Assembly (NCBI GenBank): GCA_963850965.1
Contig: CAWKMT010000005.1
Span: forward strand, 96,926-160,925
DNA length: 64,000 nt
From: an uncultured Actinomycetota bacterium
Lineage (GTDB): Bacteria; Actinomycetota; Actinomycetes; Propionibacteriales; Nocardioidaceae
Direction of reading: 5' to 3'
Shown here: in pieces, positions 34,032-64,000 of the stretch
How positions within the stretch are numbered: the stretch's first letter is position 1
Layout of the letters: every line of letters starts with the position of its first letter
Translations under genes and position numbers: made by a program
Notes under the pieces: generated by a model
Seen by the model: only the letters and a program-made list of their open reading frames with translations
What the model was told of the DNA's origin: nothing
Database searches by the model: none

Positions 34032-34481
34032 ATGAGCAACGATTCCGCGGTCCCCCCTGCCCTCTCGGTCGACGACGTCGTCAACTCACTGCCGCTGGGC
34101 ATGGGCGCCCTCAACGAGAAGATGGGCATCCAGCTCGTCGAGGTCTCCGCCGAGCGTGTGGTCGGCACCATGCCCGTCGAGGGGAACACCCAGCCCTACG
34201 GCCTGCTGCACGGCGGAGCGTCGGTCGTCCTGGCCGAGTCACTGGGCTCGATGGGCTCGGCGATCCACGCCCACCCGGACAAGATCGCCGTCGGCGTGGA
34301 CATCAACGCCACCCACCACCGGGCCGCCACCGGCGGGACCGTCACCGGGGTCGCCACGGCCATCCACCTGGGTCGCTCGATGGCGACCTACGAGGTCGTG
34401 ATCACCGACGAGCGGGACAAGCGGGTGTGCACCGCGCGGATCACCTGCTCGCTGATCCCCGCCGAGCGTTTCGGGCAGTGA
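34032..34481 (+). CDS. PaaI/hotdog-fold thioesterase
   Basis: NTQPYGLLHGGASVVLAESLGS, VGVDINATHH. Confidence 0.9.
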   Translation: MSNDSAVPPALSVDDVVNSLPLGMGALNEKMGIQLVEVSAERVVGTMPVEGNTQPYGLLHGGASVVLAESLGSMGSAIHAHPDKIAVGVDINATHHRAATGGTVTGVATAIHLGRSMATYEVVITDERDKRVCTARITCSLIPAERFGQ

Positions 34482-55484: not shown

Positions 55485-55549
55485 GCGAGCTCCTCGTGAC
55501 GGGGACATCGTGGCGTGATGCCGTGGTGCGGTGGTGCGTTCGGGTCAGT

Positions 55550-56161
55550 CTATTCGTCTGCTCGCGCGGTGGGGTCGCGACCCTCGTCCATCGCCTTCCA
55601 GAGGTCCAGGCTGGTCTGGTCCTCCGGGTCGCTCGGTGCGGGAGAGCTCGCGGTGCCGGGGGCGTCGTACCTGCTGCCCATCTCGGGCCAGGCCGGCACC
55701 CAGCGCAGGGCAAACAGCGTCGCGGCGGTCGAGGCGAGCCCAGCCACCGCCGCGGCCCAGAACCAGCCGGTGCGGGTCACGTCGAGCTCCTCGACGATGC
55801 CCACGTCGGCAAAACTCGAACGCACGGAGTCGGGCACCGAGGACCAGCCCACGACCACGCTCGCCAGCACCCCCGCCGAGGCGAGCGCACCCAGGGCGGC
55901 AACCGCTCGGCGTACCCTCCCGCGGCTGACGAGGATCACGCCCCAGCACGCCAGGACGACCAGCGCGAGCGCGCCGGCCAACGGCATCTGCTCGGCGTCA
56001 GCGGTGAGCGCCAGCGCCGAGAAGTCCCCCGCTCTGCCTCCCGAGCCGTGCGCCCAGGGCTTGTTGCCCGCGACGGCGCCGAGCGTGCCGGACGCGAGGC
56101 CGAGCAGCAGGACCGGCCCGAACGTGCGCCGGGCGCGAGACTTCTCGACGGCGTCAGCCAT
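55550..56161 (-). CDS. Trp biosynthesis-associated membrane protein (TIGR02234-like)
   Basis: 4 [26 protein letters not shown]. Confidence 0.85.
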
Positions 56162-56504
56162 CGGTCGCGAGCAGCAGGTCGGCGTCGAAGCAGGTGTGCT
56201 CGCCGGTGTGGCAGGCCGCACCCTCCTGGTCGACGAGGACGAGCAGGGTGTCGCCGTCGCAGTCGAGCCGGACCTCCTTGACCCACTGGACGTGGCCCGA
56301 GGTCTCACCCTTGAGCCAGTACTCCTGGCGCGAGCGGCTCCAGTACGTCGCGCGCCCTGTCGTGAGGGTGCGGGCCAGCGCCTCGTCGTCCATCCAGCCG
56401 AGCATCAACACTTCACGGGTGTCGTGCTGCTGCACCACGGCGGGCACGAGCCCCTCCGGGGATCGCTTGAGGCGGGCGGCGAGCGCGGGGTCGAGGGAGG
56501 TCAC
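56154..56504 (-). CDS. hisI: Phosphoribosyl-AMP cyclohydrolase
   Basis: [45 protein letters not shown]. Confidence 0.95.
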
Positions 56505-56653
56505 GGCTCCAGTATCGCGTGCGGTCGGTCGAGCGTGGGCCGGTGGGCGAGCAGGCGAGGTGAGGGAGGTCGACGGCGCTCGGCGAGCGTCGCCGGAGGG
56601 CTAGCTGTTTCTTGTCCACATGTCGGAAGATCGGCGGGTTTTCGGGGTCGGAA

Positions 56654-56675
56654 TGTCGGTGGTCCCGGCTTGACT
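56654..56675 (+). promoter_or_regulatory. PafBC/RecA-NDp-type promoter (mini element)
   Basis: TGTCGG-N10-TTGACT-N6-ATG; -10 deviates from TANNNT at position 2. Confidence 0.5.
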
Positions 56676-56732
56676 TGACCCATGACCGAGACGCTCGACT
56701 CAAGACCCACGGGGCTGAGCCACGCTCGCGAA

Positions 56733-56778
56733 CGACCGAGGGGGTGAGTGGCGCGAACGCCACTCACCCCCTCGGTCG
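56733..56778. terminator. 21-bp perfect hairpin, UUCG tetraloop on the - strand
   Basis: CGACCGAGGGGGTGAGTGGCG-CGAA-CGCCACTCACCCCCTCGGTCG, 13 nt past the surface-protein stop. Confidence 0.8.
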
Positions 56779-56790
56779 ATCTCTGCTCGC

Positions 56791-59700
56791 TCAGTCCAGG
56801 TGGAAGGAAGCCACCCGGGTGGAGCCCGAAGCCACCGTTCCCGCCTTCCGGAGCCGAACCTTGAGCGTGTGCTGTCCGCTCGAGAGCCCACGGATCTTCA
56901 GCCTCAGCCGACCGTTGTTGATCGTCCTGCGCGCGATCACGCGACCACGGTCGACCACCTGGATCACCCCGGACACCGCCGAAACTCCAGGCGCCCTGAC
57001 CGCGATCTTGAGTCGCACGCTGCGACCCTTGACGACCCGACGCACCGAGAACCTCGGCGTCGACAGGACCGGACGGGTGGCCGAGGACGTCCGCACGACG
57101 GGCGTCGAGCCCTCGTCGGTGTAGGTCGCCCGGACCGAGATCGCACGACCCAGGTCGTCCGCCGTCAGCTTGTACGTCTCGCCGACCGCGCCCGGCACCG
57201 TGGTACCGGCTCGCAACCACTGGTAGCTGACGGTGGCGTCGGACGGGGACACCGAGCCGGCCGAGGCCTGCAGGGTCCGGCCGAGCCTGGGCTTGCCGGC
57301 CACGCTCGGTCCGCCGGTGACGACGATGGTGTCGCTCGTGACCGCTGCCGTCGGGTCGGACGTTGCGGTGCCATCGGTGAACTCGGCCTTGCGAGCCGTG
57401 ACCACCACCGTCATCGTCTTGCCGACCTCGGCCTCGGTCAGCGTGTAGGTGGCCGCAGTTGCTCCACCGATCGCCACCCCCGCCGCACGCCACTGGTAGC
57501 TGTACGTCGTCGGCGTGGGCGACCAGGTGCCGTTGTCGGTCGTGAGCACCTCGCCGACCCGGGCAGTCCCCGTGATCCGGGGCCGGACAGTGGCGACGAG
57601 AGCATCGGCTGCCACCACGGCCCCAGTCGCATCCGACGTGGCGCTGGCGTCGGCGTACTCGGCCTTGCGAGCCGTGACCACCACGGTCATCGCCTTGCCG
57701 AGCTCGGCTTCGGTGAGCTTGTAGGTGGCTTCGGTCGCGCCAGCGATCGGCACCCCATCTGCCCTCCACTGGTACACGAACGACGTCGGCGTGGGCGTCC
57801 AGGTGCCGTTGTCGGTCGTGAGCACCTCGCCGACTCGAGCCTCTCCCGTGATCCGGGGCCGAGCAGAGGCGACGAGTACGTCGCCAGCCACCACGGCCGC
57901 GGTGTAGGCCGATTCGGCCTGCCCGGCGGCGTAGCCGGTCAGGGCAGCCACGACCCGAACCCCCATCCGTTGACCGATCTGGGCGTCAGCAGGAGTGAAG
58001 GTGGCCGCGGTGGCCCCAGGGATCGCGGAACCGTTGGCGAGCCACTGGTAGGTGTAGCTCGCACCCTCGACGGACCAGGTGCCCGAGCTGGCCGTCAGCG
58101 CCCGACCTGACTTGGGGGTGCCGGTGATGACGGGAGCGGTCACGTTCGTGATCGGACCCGCGGTCACCTTGTCCGTGGGCTTCGAGGTCGCCTTGACCGA
58201 GTCAGCGGTGACCCTGACCGCGATGACCTTGTTGAGCTGCTCCGGTGTGATCCGGAAGGTCGCGGCCGTGGCACCGGCGATGTCGATCTCGTTGGCGATC
58301 CACTGGTAGGTGACCGAGCTCGGCCTCGTGCTCCACTGACCCGCGGTCGCCGTCAACGTCGCGCCCGTGACCGGGTCCCCCGTCACCGTCGGCAGCAGGC
58401 GGTTCTCGAAGGCCGCCGGGAACGGGAAGCTCGTGGCCCTCGAGGTCGCCAACGAGGTCAGCGTGGTGGACTGAAGTGTCGGCGAGGAAGCCGTCACCTC
58501 GATCGAGTAGGCGTCACCCGATGACCCGGGTGCGCTCGTGGGAATCGTGTAGGTGAAGCCGGTCTGGGCGGGGGTGATCGGCACACCATTGGCGAGCCAC
58601 CTGATCGTGAGGTCAGCCTCGCCGGGGCTCCAGGTGCCGGGGTTCGCCGTCAGCTTGCCACCCGACGTGGCCCCGCCACTGATCCAGGGACCGGTGAGGT
58701 TCATGACCGCGAACGGATCGAGCTGGAAGTTGACCCCACTCGTCGCACCACTCACCACGACGTCCTTGGCGGACGCCACGTCCTGCGCATTGGGCCAGAA
58801 GCGCGTGAAGTCGTTGGTGTCCGACCTCGGCCGTTCGCCTCGATCCGGTACGTGCGCTCGGACAGGGGCAAGGTGTAGGCACCCTTCGCGTTCGAGGCCG
58901 CGCTACCGGGAGCCGATCGCCAGCTGGCGATCGGGAACCCGTCGACGATGTTGTCCACGAGGTTGTACTGGGCCGAGATCAGAGCGCCCGAGATGGGGGC
59001 AGCCGAGCTGTCGAGCAGGGTGCCGGACACCGAGCCCACAGCAGGGAGCCGGTAGGTGATCCCGGTCTCGGACTTCCCGGACGTGAGCTTGATGTCTGCG
59101 CCCTTGTCCAGTCCCACCAGGTTCGGGAGGTAGCCGACGCCGCGGGACGGGAGGTCGACGCGAAGGCGGTAGGTCCCGGCCGGGGCGGAGAGCGAGAAGA
59201 TCCCGTCGTCGAGCTCGACCTCGGGCAGCATCGACCAGGAGGTCCGGATCGCGCCCGTGGTGGCGTCGCGCTCGCTGACCTCGTGCACGAGGCGGATCGT
59301 CCCCGACCCGGTGAACACGGTCTGGTCGGCGTTCAGCAGCCGTCCGGTCAACCGGCCGTCGAGGCGCACCATCTTCACCGGGTCCAGCAGCTCGGTCGAT
59401 CCTGCCTCGACGACCACGTTCCTGGCAGAGTCGATCGCGGTCGCATCCTGGTAGTACCGCGGTTCGAAGACCGAGCCAGCCTGGTAACCGAGGCGGTACG
59501 TGCCCGCGGGGACACCCACCTGGTAGCCGCCCTGGGCATTGGTGTCGCCCTTGGCCACCGACGTCCACGTCCGCGTGCCGTCGGCGGCAACGGAGATCTT
59601 GTAGACGGTGACGACAACGCCCGTCATCGGCTCCGGTTCCGGGTAGGACGTCATTGGTCACGGTGCCGGCGATCGTCGCGTTCCGCACGGTCAGGGCAAC

Positions 59701-60453
59701 CGTCTTCAACGCAGATTCTCGTTGGTGACCGTCACGGGGGTGGCCTCCTCGCGCGTGGTCGCGGGGGTCTTCGTGTCGGAGTCGTCGTAGTACGCCGGGA
59801 GGTACCCGGACCCGGCGTAGCCGACCGTGTAGGTGCCGGCCGGGACGGTGGCGGAGTACTTCCCATCAGCACCGGTGACAGCCAGGGGCGCGGTCTGCGC
59901 CTCGGTCCAGGTCGTGGTGCCGTCCGCGTTGAGCTGGCCCGACTCGACCGTGATCTTCACGCCCTTGATCGGCGCCCCCGTAGCAGACTCGACGAGACCG
60001 GAGAGGATGACGTTGCGCGCGCTCAGCTTGACCGTGCTCAACGGCTTGTCGGCGTTGGTGACCTCCACGTCGACACCACCCTCACGAGTGGACGCCGGCG
60101 GGTTCTCGCCGTTGTAGAACGCCGGCGAGTAGCCGGACCCCGTGTAGCCAACCTTGTAGGTGCCGGCCGGCACGGTGGCGACGTACTTCGCCATCGGCAC
60201 CGGTGACCGCCGGCGTCCCCGTCTGCGCCTCGGACCACGTCGTGGTGCCGTCCGCTGTGAGCTTGGACGACTCGACCGAGATCTTGATCCCGCCGATCGG
60301 CGTGCCGCCAGCGGAGGTGACGATCCCGGAGATCTTGTAGGTCGTGGCCGCGTACGCGGCCGGGACCATGCCGGCCAACACTCCCGCGACGAGCGAGAGG
60401 ACCACGGCCAACAGACCGAGTTGGCGAGTCAGGACGGACCTTCGAGACGGCAT
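56791..60453 (-). pseudogene. ~1220-aa secreted surface protein (carboxypeptidase-regulatory/Cna-like domains plus Ig-like repeats), split by four frameshifts
   Basis: Signal peptide in ORF 60082-60453; continuous domain sequence across ORFs 59706-60200, 58903-59709, 58752-59654 and 56791-58779; repeats such as TGxxRVGEVLTTDNGTW..PT..YQW; basic C-terminal Ig-like domain. Confidence 0.8.
57385..57900. repeat. Intragenic tandem duplication, 276-bp (92-aa) period
   Basis: CAGGTGCCGTTGTCGGTCGTGAGCACCTCGCCGAC at 57524 and 57800; CGGCCTTGCGAGCCGTGACCACCAC recurs with the same offset. Confidence 0.85.
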
Positions 60454-60669
60454 GGCAAAACCTCACATGACAAGTTGTCCAAATTGCCCCAGCGGGAGCA
60501 TCGTGCACAACGGAGCCAACAACGTTTGGTTATCGGACACGTGGAAAACGCGCACCACCGGGCAAAATTGGCCCACTGGACTGGACCGCTCAGGAGTTTG
60601 TTGCGCCATCCGGGCCACACAACAATTTCTTTCCACATCCGGGCGTTGGGCCGGTTTTCGGGGCTGGAA

Positions 60670-60691
60670 TGTCGGTGGTCCCGGCTTGAAT
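60670..60691 (+). promoter_or_regulatory. PafBC/RecA-NDp-type promoter (full HNH element)
   Basis: TGTCGG-N10-TTGAAT-N6-ATG (leaderless geometry). Confidence 0.55.
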
Positions 60692-60697
60692 TGATCC

Positions 60698-62028
60698 ATG
60701 ACCGAGACGCTCGCCGATGTCGACACCGCTGCTGGGGTGCTCGAGTTGGCGCGGGCGCAGCGGACCGCGGCCGACACCGCCGAGGCCACTCTGTTGCAGG
60801 CGGCGGTGGCGTGGGCGGTGATGCACTCGACCGAGTCGCTGGACGATGCGGCGTCGATCACCGACCGGTGTTTCCTGGAGGAGTCGCTGCCGATCGCGGG
60901 TCCGGGTGCCCCGTTGATCGCGGAGTTCTCGATCACTGAGTTCGCGGTCGCGGTCGGGCTGTCGACCGAGGCCGGGAAGGCGTACCTGGGTGAGGCGGTC
61001 GAGCTGCGCTACCGACTCCCGCGGGTCTGGAAGCGCGTCGCTGGTGGTGACCTGGTGGCGTGGAAGGCGAGGTGGATCGCCAAGGCCACCCTGTCGCTCT
61101 CGATGGAGGCCGCTCGGTTCGTGGACGCCCGGGTCGCGGCGTTTGCGCACCGGCTCCGCGTCAGTGAGCTCGACCGCCTGGTCGAGACCGCGATCGCCCA
61201 GTTCATGCCCGAGGAGGCCGAACGCCGCCGCAAGGCCGCCGCGGACGGCCGGTCGTTCAACGTCGGGAAGTCCCGCACCGGTCTCGACGGGAACGCCGAT
61301 GTCTGGGGCACCCTCGATGTGGCCGATGCCCTCGACCTCGACGCCGCCGTTGCCGAGGGTGCCGAGGCGTTGAAGACACTCGGGTCGACCGAGTCGTTGG
61401 ACGTACGCCGCGCCCAGGCACTCGGGGCGATCGCCCGACGTCAGCTGGCCTTCGACCTCAACGGCACCGACGACGAGACCGGCTCGACGCCCGCGCGGAA
61501 GCCGCGGCAGGTGGTCCTCCACGTCCACCTCTCCGAGGCCGCGATCCGTGGCGAGGCCGGTGGGCTCGGGCGGTTCGAGAACACCCGGAGCCCGATCACC
61601 GTCGAGCAGATCCGCGACTGGTGCGGCAACCCCGACGCCCAGGTCGTCGTGAAGCCGGTCATCGACCTGGACGATCACCACCACGTGAATGCCTACGAGG
61701 TCCCCGACCGGATCCGTGAGCAATCCGCCCTGATCACCCAGACCTGTGTCTTCCCGTGGTGCACCAGATCAGCCCGACGTTGCGACAGCGACCACATCCA
61801 GCCCTACGACTCCGGCGGATCGACGTCCAGTGACAACATTGCGCCACTCTGCCGCAGGCACCATCGGCTCAAGACCCACGGCGGCTGGACCTACCGACCA
61901 CTCGAGCCCGGTGCCCATCTCTGGTCCAGCCCCCACGGCTACCGTTCCTCCGCAATGAGTCCGGCACCCTCGACGTCAGCCGCGACAAGCACCCGACGTC
62001 GGCCGCCCCACCCGACCGAAGAGCCTGA
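60698..62028 (+). CDS. DUF222/13E12-repeat family HNH endonuclease (1-nt frameshift near 61945; corrected stop 62028, track stop 62242)
   Basis: Helical N domain (GEAVELRYRLPRVW, SLDVRRAQALG), C-terminal CVFPWC...CDSDH...NIAPLCRRHHRLKTHGGW; shifted frame continues HGY-FLRNESGTLDVSRD...PPDRRA*. Confidence 0.85.
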
Positions 62029-62093
62029 CCGCCCCACACCCCGCCCGAGCAACACCGGCGGGGCCAGTGGCACGTCCGAACCGACAAGGAGCC

Positions 62094-62681
62094 CTAGATC
62101 GGTTGGTACCAGACGTAGGGCCGCGGGTCGCCCGGCAGAGAGAGGCGAAGCTTGTGCAGGCCACGTCCGTCGAGAGCAAGGCACGACGATCTCTCATCGG
62201 GCAGGACTCGGAACAGGTGCGTGGTCAAGGGCCACTCGCTGATGAGCCACTCGTTCACGGCGTCGACGACCACGGCTACGAGCCCGGAATCCTGCTGGTC
62301 CTGGCGTAACCAGAAGGTCACCATTCCCGAGGCTTCGGGGATGGTGTCGAGAAGCCGGGACTCGGCCTCGGCGCGCTGGAGGTACGCGCGAAGCGGGTTC
62401 ACGTACACGCAGCCCCAGGCCTCGCTGAGGGATGGATCGAGCAGCACGAAGGCGAAAGCCCGGCGCGCGTCATGATCAGCCTGGTGCTGGGCGACGAGCT
62501 CCAGGTCGTCGGCAAGGGTGAACCCGTCGACGGGCCACCGGCCGTCGCTGTGCACGCGGATGACCTCGGGGCTGGCCATGTAGGCGGCGTAGTCCAGGGG
62601 CGCCGTGGCCGCGGTGAGGGGGACGGCCACGAACACATCGTGGTGCAGCCCGGTCGGAATCGTTGTCGTCTCGTCGAACAT
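62094..62681 (-). CDS. Hypothetical protein, GNAT-like fold probable
   Basis: SD GAGG before ATG 62681; RAFAFVLLDP..WGCVYVNP, VTFWLRQ. Confidence 0.6.
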   Translation of the reverse strand: MFDETTTIPTGLHHDVFVAVPLTAATAPLDYAAYMASPEVIRVHSDGRWPVDGFTLADDLELVAQHQADHDARRAFAFVLLDPSLSEAWGCVYVNPLRAYLQRAEAESRLLDTIPEASGMVTFWLRQDQQDSGLVAVVVDAVNEWLISEWPLTTHLFRVLPDERSSCLALDGRGLHKLRLSLPGDPRPYVWYQPI

Positions 62682-62698
62682 GGCCACCTCGATCCCGC

Positions 62699-64000
62699 TC
62701 AGGAGCCCTGCTGCGCCATCCACGACGAGTGCAGCCCGGCGTAGATCCCCTCGACGCCGACCAGCTCGCGGTGCGGACCGCGTTGTACGACGCGCCCGTG
62801 GTCGACCACGACGACCTCGTCGGCGTTCTCCGCGGTCGAGAGCCGGTGGGCGATCGTGACCGACGTACGCCCGCTCATCAAGCGTTCGAGGGCGCGGCCG
62901 ATCCGCATCTCGAGGGCGGGATCGACGGCGCTGGTCGCCTCGTCGAGCACGAGCAGGTCGGGGTCCACGAGGTGGGCCCGCAGGAGGGCGACCAGCTGCC
63001 GCTCCCCCGCCGACAGGGAGTCCCCGCGCTGTCCGACCCGGGTCTCCAGACCGGCGGGCAGCCCGGCGATCCAGTCGTCCAGACCGAGCTCCTCGGCGCT
63101 GGCGTGGATCTCCGCGTCGGTGGCGCCCAGCCGGCCGTAGCGGACGTTGGCCGCGATCGTGTCGTCGAAGAGGAACCCCTCCTGAGGAACGAGCACGACA
63201 CTGCGGCGCAGCGAGGGCGGCGCGATCATCCGGATGTCGAGGCCGTCGAGGAGGACCGAGCCCTCGTCGGGATCCATCAGCCGGGTCAGCAGCTTGGCGA
63301 AGGTCGACTTGCCGGAGCCGGTCTCGCCGACGATCGCGATCCGGGAGCCCGAGGCGATGTCCAGGGTGATGTCACGCAGGACCGGAGGGCCGCCCGGGTA
63401 GGAGAAGCTCACCTGGTCGAAGTGGATGTCGATGGGTCCGCGCGGGAGCGTCTGGCCGTCCGGACCGGGGTCGACCAGGTCGGCGGGTGTCTCGAGGATC
63501 CCGATCACCCGGCGCCAGCCGGCGATGGCGTTCTGGGCGTCGGTGAGGATCTGGGTGCCCATCTGCACCGGACCGACGAAGAGCGTGACCAGGAAGGCGA
63601 AGGCCAGCACCTTGCCGGCCGTGATGTCCCCCGCGAAGCCCAGCCAGATGCCGACGATGAGCACCCCGGCATTCGCGAGCCCCGCCGAGATGCCACCCAG
63701 CGAGAAGGAGAACGCCGTGAACCCCTGGGCCCGGGTCGAGGCGACCCGGTGGGCGTCCACCGCGGTGTCGATCCGCGCCTGGGTGCGGGCCTCGACGGCG
63801 TACGAGCGGACGACCGCGGCACCGACGACCGGCTCGGAGATCGCCGAGAGCAGGAGCCCGACCTGGCGCCGGACGATGCCGTAGGCCTCGGAGAGCCGGC
63901 GCTGGAAGAAGCGCAACGACAAGAACAGCGGCGCGAAGCAGACCCACACCACGATCGCGAGCTGCCAGCTGTAGATCACCATCACCACGGTGGCGACGAA
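62699..64000 (-). CDS. ABC transporter fused permease/ATPase (5' end outside window)
   Basis: TM domain then GETGSGKST, VPQEGFLF, LSAGERQLVAL, LVLDEATS, IAHRLSTA. Confidence 0.93.
   Translation of the reverse strand, partial: FVATVVMVIYSWQLAIVVWVCFAPLFLSLRFFQRRLSEAYGIVRRQVGLLLSAISEPVVGAAVVRSYAVEARTQARIDTAVDAHRVASTRAQGFTAFSFSLGGISAGLANAGVLIVGIWLGFAGDITAGKVLAFAFLVTLFVGPVQMGTQILTDAQNAIAGWRRVIGILETPADLVDPGPDGQTLPRGPIDIHFDQVSFSYPGGPPVLRDITLDIASGSRIAIVGETGSGKSTFAKLLTRLMDPDEGSVLLDGLDIRMIAPPSLRRSVVLVPQEGFLFDDTIAANVRYGRLGATDAEIHASAEELGLDDWIAGLPAGLETRVGQRGDSLSAGERQLVALLRAHLVDPDLLVLDEATSAVDPALEMRIGRALERLMSGRTSVTIAHRLSTAENADEVVVVDHGRVVQRGPHRELVGVEGIYAGLHSSWMAQQGS

Follow-up and report, generated by a model that had tools for sequence, protein, structure and literature searches.

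We analysed a stretch of DNA of 64,000 nucleotides (nt; hereafter the window) from an uncultured member of the Nocardioidaceae (Actinomycetota; assembly GCA_963850965.1, contig CAWKMT010000005.1, positions 96,926 to 160,925), whose genome (G000) comprises 3.59 Mb in 6 contigs. Our subject is the region between hisI and an ABC exporter gene near the right end of the window, where two copies of a DUF222-HNH repeat - one near full length, the other very short - lie in direct orientation on either side of a gene for a secreted surface protein. An earlier note on this DNA saw in them an autonomous HNH element and a derivative resembling a miniature inverted-repeat transposable element (MITE), which might act as a composite element on the gene between them. 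The two copies are made up of the following features:

56606 to 56697, plus strand: 5' segment of the short left copy (the relic), running from the unit 5' end through the promoter to nt 16 of the open reading frame (ORF); 85-95% identical to the 5' ends of 17 full units.
56612 to 56620, plus strand: TTGTCCACA, a DnaA-box-like motif at the unit 5' edge, conserved in units.
56654 to 56684, plus strand: PafBC/RecA-NDp-like promoter of the relic (TGTCGGTG, 8 nt, TTGACT, 6 nt, ATG predicted to be leaderless); the box is shared by every unit.
56696 to 56731, plus strand: second segment of the relic, about 36 nt of the HNH C-terminal coding region, recognised by local alignment and joined at a CG microhomology.
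56730 to 56781, no strand assigned: strong hairpin between the relic and the stop of the surface gene; its 24-nt arms match at 96% and fold with 21 perfect pairs.
60624 to 62080, plus strand: near-full DUF222-type HNH repeat unit of 1.46 kb, one of 17; 86-92% identical to 16 other loci over its full length.
60670 to 60700, plus strand: PafBC-like box of the full unit (TGTCGGTG, 8 nt, TTGAAT, 6 nt, ATG), recognised as a motif.
60698 to 62028, plus strand: HNH-nuclease ORF, in frame to 61936 and followed by a 1-nt deletion; the family frame stops at TGA 62026-62028.
62039 to 62077, plus strand: unit 3' end, a hairpin (CCCCGCC...GGCGGGG) followed by CCAGTGGCACGTCC; conserved in 16 units.

As described before, 56637-56697 and 60653-60713 are identical at 57 of 61 nt; the match extends without gaps to 74 nt at 88% (56624-56697 against 60640-60713) and, by BLAST, the stretch of the relic that is homologous to other units spans 56606-56697. 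The motif preceding both copies, previously given as TTTCTT(G)TCCACAT, is indeed present in each (left, TTTCTTGTCCACAT at 56608-56621; right, TTTCTT-TCCACAT at 60626-60638). The relic, which is about 130 nt long and lies some 4 kb from the full unit in the same orientation, consists of the first 92 nt of a unit fused to a fragment of the HNH-coding end: after ATGACCGAGACGCTCG it reads on as ACTCAAGACCCACGG, and 17 nt (CGACTCAAGACCCACGG) - more than the 14 claimed earlier - match the HNH-coding end of most paralogs exactly, with a gapped match of about 36 nt. Local alignment of this second segment to the units scores 44, while the maximum among 300 shuffles was 30 (0/300), and a CG microhomology of 2 nt is common to both segments at the junction. 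This junction alignment supports the proposed internal deletion and, judged by it, the left copy is a derivative of a unit that lost about 1.15 kb from its interior.

The relic is found once in the genome, the outcome that the earlier note itself had named as speaking against a MITE-like pair. It lacks the last ~200 nt of a unit including the 3' hairpin and the CAGTGGCAyGTCC end (homology ends at about 56731), and its junction could not be found among 185,579 species genomes or 241 million metagenome records (collection of the JGI, Joint Genome Institute). Being unique, devoid of the unit 3' end and joined in a way seen nowhere else, it is a relic rather than a MITE, in other words a one-off and non-functional product of decay. 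Since its 5' end is nearer to distant paralogs (94-95%) than to the neighbouring full unit (87%), the pair does not represent a recent local duplication. Immediately downstream, the hairpin at 56730-56781 (fold energy -72.7 kcal/mol, z -7.8) is probably a bidirectional terminator common to the relic and the convergent surface gene. An Rfam scan of 55500-62800 gave nothing apart from chance microRNA-like matches on this terminator hairpin, and a promoter and terminator scan detected neither a sigma-70 consensus site nor a T-tract terminator.

In line with the multicopy nature ascribed to such genes by the earlier note, the genome contains 17 dispersed full-length units, which are 86-92% identical (about 89% on average), measure 1.44-1.48 kb and share sharp ends that coincide within about 10 nt at 17 unrelated loci. 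From 5' to 3' each is laid out as an edge (GAAAnnTCTTGTCCACATGTCGGAAG), the promoter TGTCGGTG-N8-TTGA(A/C)T-N6-ATG, an ORF of about 443 amino acids (aa), a GC-rich hairpin and CAGTGGCAyGTCC; the best named homologues are from Nocardioides. Congeners, with up to 19 matches to the unit, hold related but separate families: ten units each that we aligned in G014 and G008 have a mean pairwise identity of 89-90% within their genome and of ~65% to those of G000, and are often broken too. Covariation in the 3' hairpin of the G000 units amounts to one stem pair (UA in 6 units, CG in 4); with this single co-varying pair, a structured RNA was rejected and we treat the element as a plain terminator-like hairpin.

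With regard to the right copy, the gene was said to end at 62028, which is correct for the family frame but is reached only past a 1-nt frameshift near 61937-61943, owing to which the ORF as written spans 60698-62242. This frameshift falls before nearly invariant C-terminal residues. Pfam recognises HNH at residues 360-394 (61775-61879; E 1.4e-5, 25.6 bits against a cut-off of 21.4), and the Cys/Asp-His/Cys-His columns are invariant across 53 homologues. No match of the window copy to DUF222 (PF02720) was returned by hmmscan up to E 10, though relatives, among them P0001 (91% identical), P0002 (a copy from the same genome) and many homologues, carry precomputed PF02720 matches. HNH is the sole domain found in the Pfam scan of the unit, which revealed no transposase domain; an AlphaFold model of an intact homologue (mean predicted local distance difference test score, pLDDT, of 75) had no Foldseek match in the PDB with E below 0.35, and a search of the PDB by sequence likewise gave no match. 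Nor did we detect target duplications of at least 4 nt across 16 units, terminal inverted repeats (the alignment of unit ends was no better than shuffles) or conserved internal palindromes in units of this family. Phage and plasmid records contain the family in 1 of 50,697 and 3 of 72,556 cases, respectively.

Premature stops interrupt 14 of the 17 units. Single-base insertions in the assembly also break three housekeeping genes in comparison to a 99.1%-identical contig of a sister strain (G000 C4:135256-146731 against L001; the genes are a 2-hydroxyacid dehydrogenase, MPAB_Lcp_cat and a 195-aa gene), so frameshifts in G000 are not by themselves proof of pseudogenes. Despite this noise, unit decay is probably real to a large extent, similar to the split REP13E12 genes of M. 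tuberculosis, because four single-copy DUF222-HNH genes of matching length (431-449 aa) are all intact in this assembly and because units are often broken in congeners as well. Pure assembly error, which we considered as a source of the frameshifts, is disfavoured by the same comparison (14/17 units against 0/4 single-copy genes). A second DUF222-HNH subfamily has 4 copies of 416 aa (G000 C4:823953, C5:233954, C6:81154, C6:245768), 2 of which are intact and nearly identical.

All units share the promoter arrangement TGTCGGTG-N8-TTGAmT-N6-ATG, which we take to be of the RecA-NDp/PafBC type; the consensus of that type was reportedly described by Gamulin and co-workers in 2004. Both box and spacing match the RecA-independent (PafBC) motif and the ATG occupies the expected transcription start, so a leaderless mRNA is predicted. 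While the roughly 26 DUF222-HNH genes, which fall into at least four subfamilies, all use the -10 variant TTGA(A/C/G)T, the TGTCGGTG box precedes about nine other G000 genes together with a canonical TAnnnT -10 (mostly TAGnGT). Because these nine genes carry both elements, the box is, as far as promoter sequences can tell, part of a real regulon in this genome, and the unit box presumably functions as a PafBC-type damage promoter (for PafBC biology, see PMC6789036). The G008 units (loci L022-L031) carry a LexA-type TCGAAC-N4-GTTCTA that overlaps a TAGTAT -10 and replaces the PafBC-type box of G000, which argues that related unit families have swapped their DNA-damage controls.

The motif at the 5' edge, TTGTCCACA (56612-56620 and 60626-60637), is kept in G014 units and inverted in those of G008 (loci L012-L031), and the unit leader around it cannot be aligned between species. 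It is identical to the high-affinity DnaA box known from M. tuberculosis and S. coelicolor (PMC4285127) and occurs in the dnaA-rpmH spacer of this genome, too, where moreover a 14-mer of the full unit (AATTTCTTTCCACA) recurs (G000 C6:~34060-34100). Which protein binds the motif is uncertain, however, since other HNH subfamilies have TGTGCACA-like motifs instead, and a literature search returned nothing linking DnaA boxes to 13E12 genes.

For comparison between strains we used a metagenome assembly from another sample (ERZ25039498), the sole close strain compared. It carries the same islet with flanks that are ~0.1% different across 11.9 kb, whereas divergence reaches ~5% in the HNH unit and in the 5' half of the surface gene; its indels at the HNH locus are not those of G000, and gene calling gave no intact gene at that place. 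The relic sequence is identical, with 0 differences across 56500-57499, and is therefore not an assembly error. The two strains share each of the three unit loci open to comparison, and at all of them the units (3-6%) differ more than their flanks (0.1-0.5%). At 90/94, 42/46 and 49/64 of the differing sites (77-96%), other paralogs of G000 carry the allele of the sister strain, and the shared alleles form mosaics of short patches with changing donors. From this pattern we infer short-patch gene conversion among paralogs, which would keep the copies alike and cause the mosaics. A higher likeness within (89-90%) than between genomes (~65%) fits concerted evolution in each lineage. In M. tuberculosis, REP13E12 copies are known to undergo gene conversion (PMC13061034), and inversions are driven by 13E12 genes recombining with one another (PMC13157036).

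Outside the two copies, the region is composed of the following features:

56540 to 62706, no strand assigned: lineage-specific islet of 6.2 kb, not present between hisI and the ABC gene in congeners.
56791 to 60453, minus strand: orphan secreted-protein gene of about 1,220 aa, frameshifted; Pfam and NCBIfam matches.
56154 to 56504, minus strand: hisI (phosphoribosyl-AMP cyclohydrolase), core flank; Pfam PRA-CH, E 2.8e-36.
62094 to 62681, minus strand: GNAT (RimJ/RimL-type) acetyltransferase gene inside the islet; homologues are GNAT or RimJ/RimL, some with PF13302.
62699 to 64000, minus strand: ABC exporter gene, core flank; 79-81% nt identity to congeners.

The stretch 56540-62706 qualifies as a lineage-specific islet because hisI and the ABC gene are neighbours in nine congeners, 6-136 nt apart; alignments with three of them (G005, G003, G011) skip from ~62706-62719 to ~56515-56539 with 6-45 nt in between. 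Its GC content is ~68%, compared to 72% in the flanks, and it contains the GNAT gene, the HNH unit, the surface gene and the relic. The earlier note placed the block between hisI and the ABC gene, and this location is right save that the GNAT gene intervenes between unit and ABC gene. The alignment of hisI loci which it called for did yield the empty site, in the nine congeners; no target duplication was seen across 16 units. The islet thus reaches past the right unit to take in the GNAT gene, and begins 66 nt before the left copy. In the sister assembly the ABC gene has ABC_membrane and ABC_tran matches and the GNAT gene is called with 195 aa. That GNAT might be the ancestral neighbour of the ABC gene was considered and rejected, as its homologues elsewhere sit in other gene neighbourhoods. 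Because a closer congener, G006, holds different genes at this place, the hisI-ABC junction is generally variable and a recurrent insertion site. The G006 genes at the ABC/hisI junction are two paralogous secreted proteins of metallo-beta-lactamase fold (C289:4700-5656, C245:1-960; L010, L011), and the contigs break there.

The surface protein has a signal peptide and CarboxypepD_reg-like domains followed by five immunoglobulin-like repeats of ~92 aa, with no obvious cell anchor motif. Its gene is split into four ORF pieces in the window assembly and into two ORFs in the sister assembly. No orthologue exists in 30 relatives and the best match among 5.8 billion proteins is at most 40% identical; the gene was probably acquired. 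The half that codes for the N-terminus (58500-60000) differs by ~5% between assemblies with 99.9% identity in the flanks, which could reflect strain-level diversification or intragenic recombination; beyond its own internal repeats the gene has no paralogs in the genome. In the spacer upstream of it, TTGTCCAAATTGCCCC and, ~75 nt away, GGGCAAAATTGG form an imperfect inverted repeat (60474-60489, 60560-60571), the former resembling the TTGTCCACATG motif of the units.

Taking anatomy, copy number, uniqueness of the relic, islet boundaries and strain mosaics as observed, we consider it probable that the locus harbours two members of a 17-copy, REP13E12-like family within an islet, the left one being a relic and neither a MITE nor the arm of a composite element. 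The relic would have arisen when an internal deletion of ~1.15 kb fused codon 5 to the HNH C-terminal region at the 2-nt CG, by what may have been illegitimate or end-joining recombination, and a second truncation would then have taken the last ~200 nt with the unit 3' hairpin. What is left comprises the DnaA-box-like motif, the PafBC-type promoter, an ORF of 21 codons and the HNH fragment of ~36 nt, abutting the terminator hairpin of the surface gene. The right member is near complete except for one frameshift near its end.

Some of our own data nevertheless weigh against so plain an account. For one, consensus errors in repeats could underlie the pseudogene calls and some of the mosaic differences. 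For another, the sharp common ends of 17 units at unrelated loci (families of three species were checked) imply that a copying mechanism for the family exists or existed. Finally, when the two 500-nt flanks of 8 other units were compared to 8 congeners, they were adjacent in none (0/8), as opposed to 4/8 random control sites of the same geometry, a contrast drawn from the small sample of 8 unit and 8 control sites. Such avoidance of conserved synteny would fit a role of the units in island formation, and they may be involved in bringing in cargo; a weaker idea is that they may serve as recombination substrates at island borders. With flanks that are not adjacent in the 8 congeners, precise empty junctions could be mapped for none of these 8 units. 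On the right flank of one unit (C4:502641; flank at G000 C4:~504090-504590) we observed a small membrane protein with 93-95% DNA identity to G003 and G008, core genes being 70-82% identical; recent horizontal exchange beside this unit is possible.

In one rival scenario units provide portable homology: the surface gene would have come in, or could be lost, when a resident unit recombined homologously with unit sequences on either side of the gene in donor DNA. Units might then be sites of damage-induced breaks, and the event would have left two direct copies, one of which decayed later. Direct units around an orphan and probably acquired gene, the lower GC content of the islet, the synteny contrast, the exchange of sequence among G000 paralogs and the recombination hot spots that units form in M. 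tuberculosis (PMC13157036) all speak for it. We still find it rather unlikely, since the islet boundary differs from the right unit end (with the GNAT gene outside), neither a donor nor an orthologous cargo locus was found and the synteny contrast comprises just 8 versus 8 sites. Besides, no second pair of units in the genome brackets cargo, the nearest other pairs being 30-35 kb apart.

A bolder version, which we put forward as a speculation of low probability, sees DUF222-HNH units as cassettes wired to replication (through TTGTCCACA) and to damage (through PafBC or LexA promoters) that mark and help to create variable islets. Under stress, the nuclease would break DNA at or near units, and some 20 dispersed units would recombine so as to gain, delete or shuffle adjacent accessory genes such as the surface-protein gene. 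The hisI islet, in which an intact unit and a decayed one enclose an orphan gene, would be a fossilised case of this.

Could the relic persist because it serves a function? It retains an intact promoter box, spacing and ATG, as functional-looking copies do, is identical in two strains while neighbouring DNA varies and is followed by a very stable terminator-like hairpin. It might give rise to a short leaderless transcript (~100 nt, 21 codons) running up to the shared hairpin and acting as a small RNA or peptide or, as a variant, interfering with the convergent surface gene during DNA damage. To our minds this is improbable, as an identity over 130 nt is uninformative between strains that are 99.9% alike, no other instance and no Rfam match turned up and the 21-aa product is an accidental fusion.

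The proposal of the earlier note, an autonomous HNH element with a 130-bp MITE-like derivative that moves the 4-kb cargo as a composite, draws support from the fact that the left copy is a true internal-deletion derivative and that the family is multicopy with sharp ends. We nonetheless judge it very improbable. The mini copy is single and has no 3' end, target duplications and inverted ends are missing, and not only the right unit but 14/17 units in all are broken. Copies are ~10% apart and the sister strain has units at the same three loci, so that nothing points to recent movement, and phage and plasmid records hardly contain the family. Nor does the pair behave like a composite element, since the islet reaches further than the repeats. 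Finally, that the short copy is a mis-join or a collapsed repeat is scarcely credible, for although the assembly has indel errors and one contig ends within a unit, an independent contig from another sample shows the same relic without a single difference over the 1 kb compared.

Among known systems, the units resemble most the REP13E12 repeats of M. tuberculosis (DUF222 PF02720 plus HNH PF01844), with which they share an actinobacterial chromosomal setting, a size of ~1.4-1.5 kb, a helical N-domain followed by HNH, many dispersed and often frameshift-split copies and promoters of the DNA-damage type. In both, paralogs exchange sequence and copies lie at variable sites or sites of rearrangement (PMC13061034, PMC13157036). 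They differ in that ours form a distinct Nocardioides-type subfamily with 17 copies in a 3.6-Mb genome and that the window copy lacks a Pfam DUF222 match. Like MITEs, the left copy derives from a longer repeat by internal deletion; unlike them, it has one terminus, a single copy and neither inverted ends nor a target duplication, and its parent has no known transposase. Composite transposons likewise place two direct copies around an accessory gene, but here a 130-bp relic forms one arm, identity between the arms is no more than 87-88%, the insertion exceeds them and no duplication flanks it. Free-standing HNH homing endonuclease genes, too, are self-contained and selfish-looking units with a single HNH gene. 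Homing, however, needs a cognate empty allele with homologous flanks, while the 17 unit loci are unrelated and the family is nearly absent from phage records.

Taken as a whole, the finding is largely ordinary, a member of a known family together with a one-off product of its decay. How REP13E12/DUF222-HNH genes function and spread has been open since the first M. tuberculosis genome, and the hisI locus leaves that unsolved. What has been gained is a lineage, probably akin to Nocardioides and not a pathogen, with 17 units of sharply defined ends, a strain pair whose units are 10- to 50-fold more divergent than their flanks and show a mosaic pattern, species-specific families that trade a PafBC-type for a LexA-type promoter yet keep the DnaA-box-like 5' motif, and a hint that units lie at synteny breaks. 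Gene conversion, damage control and a possible DnaA link of this family thereby become testable outside a pathogen.

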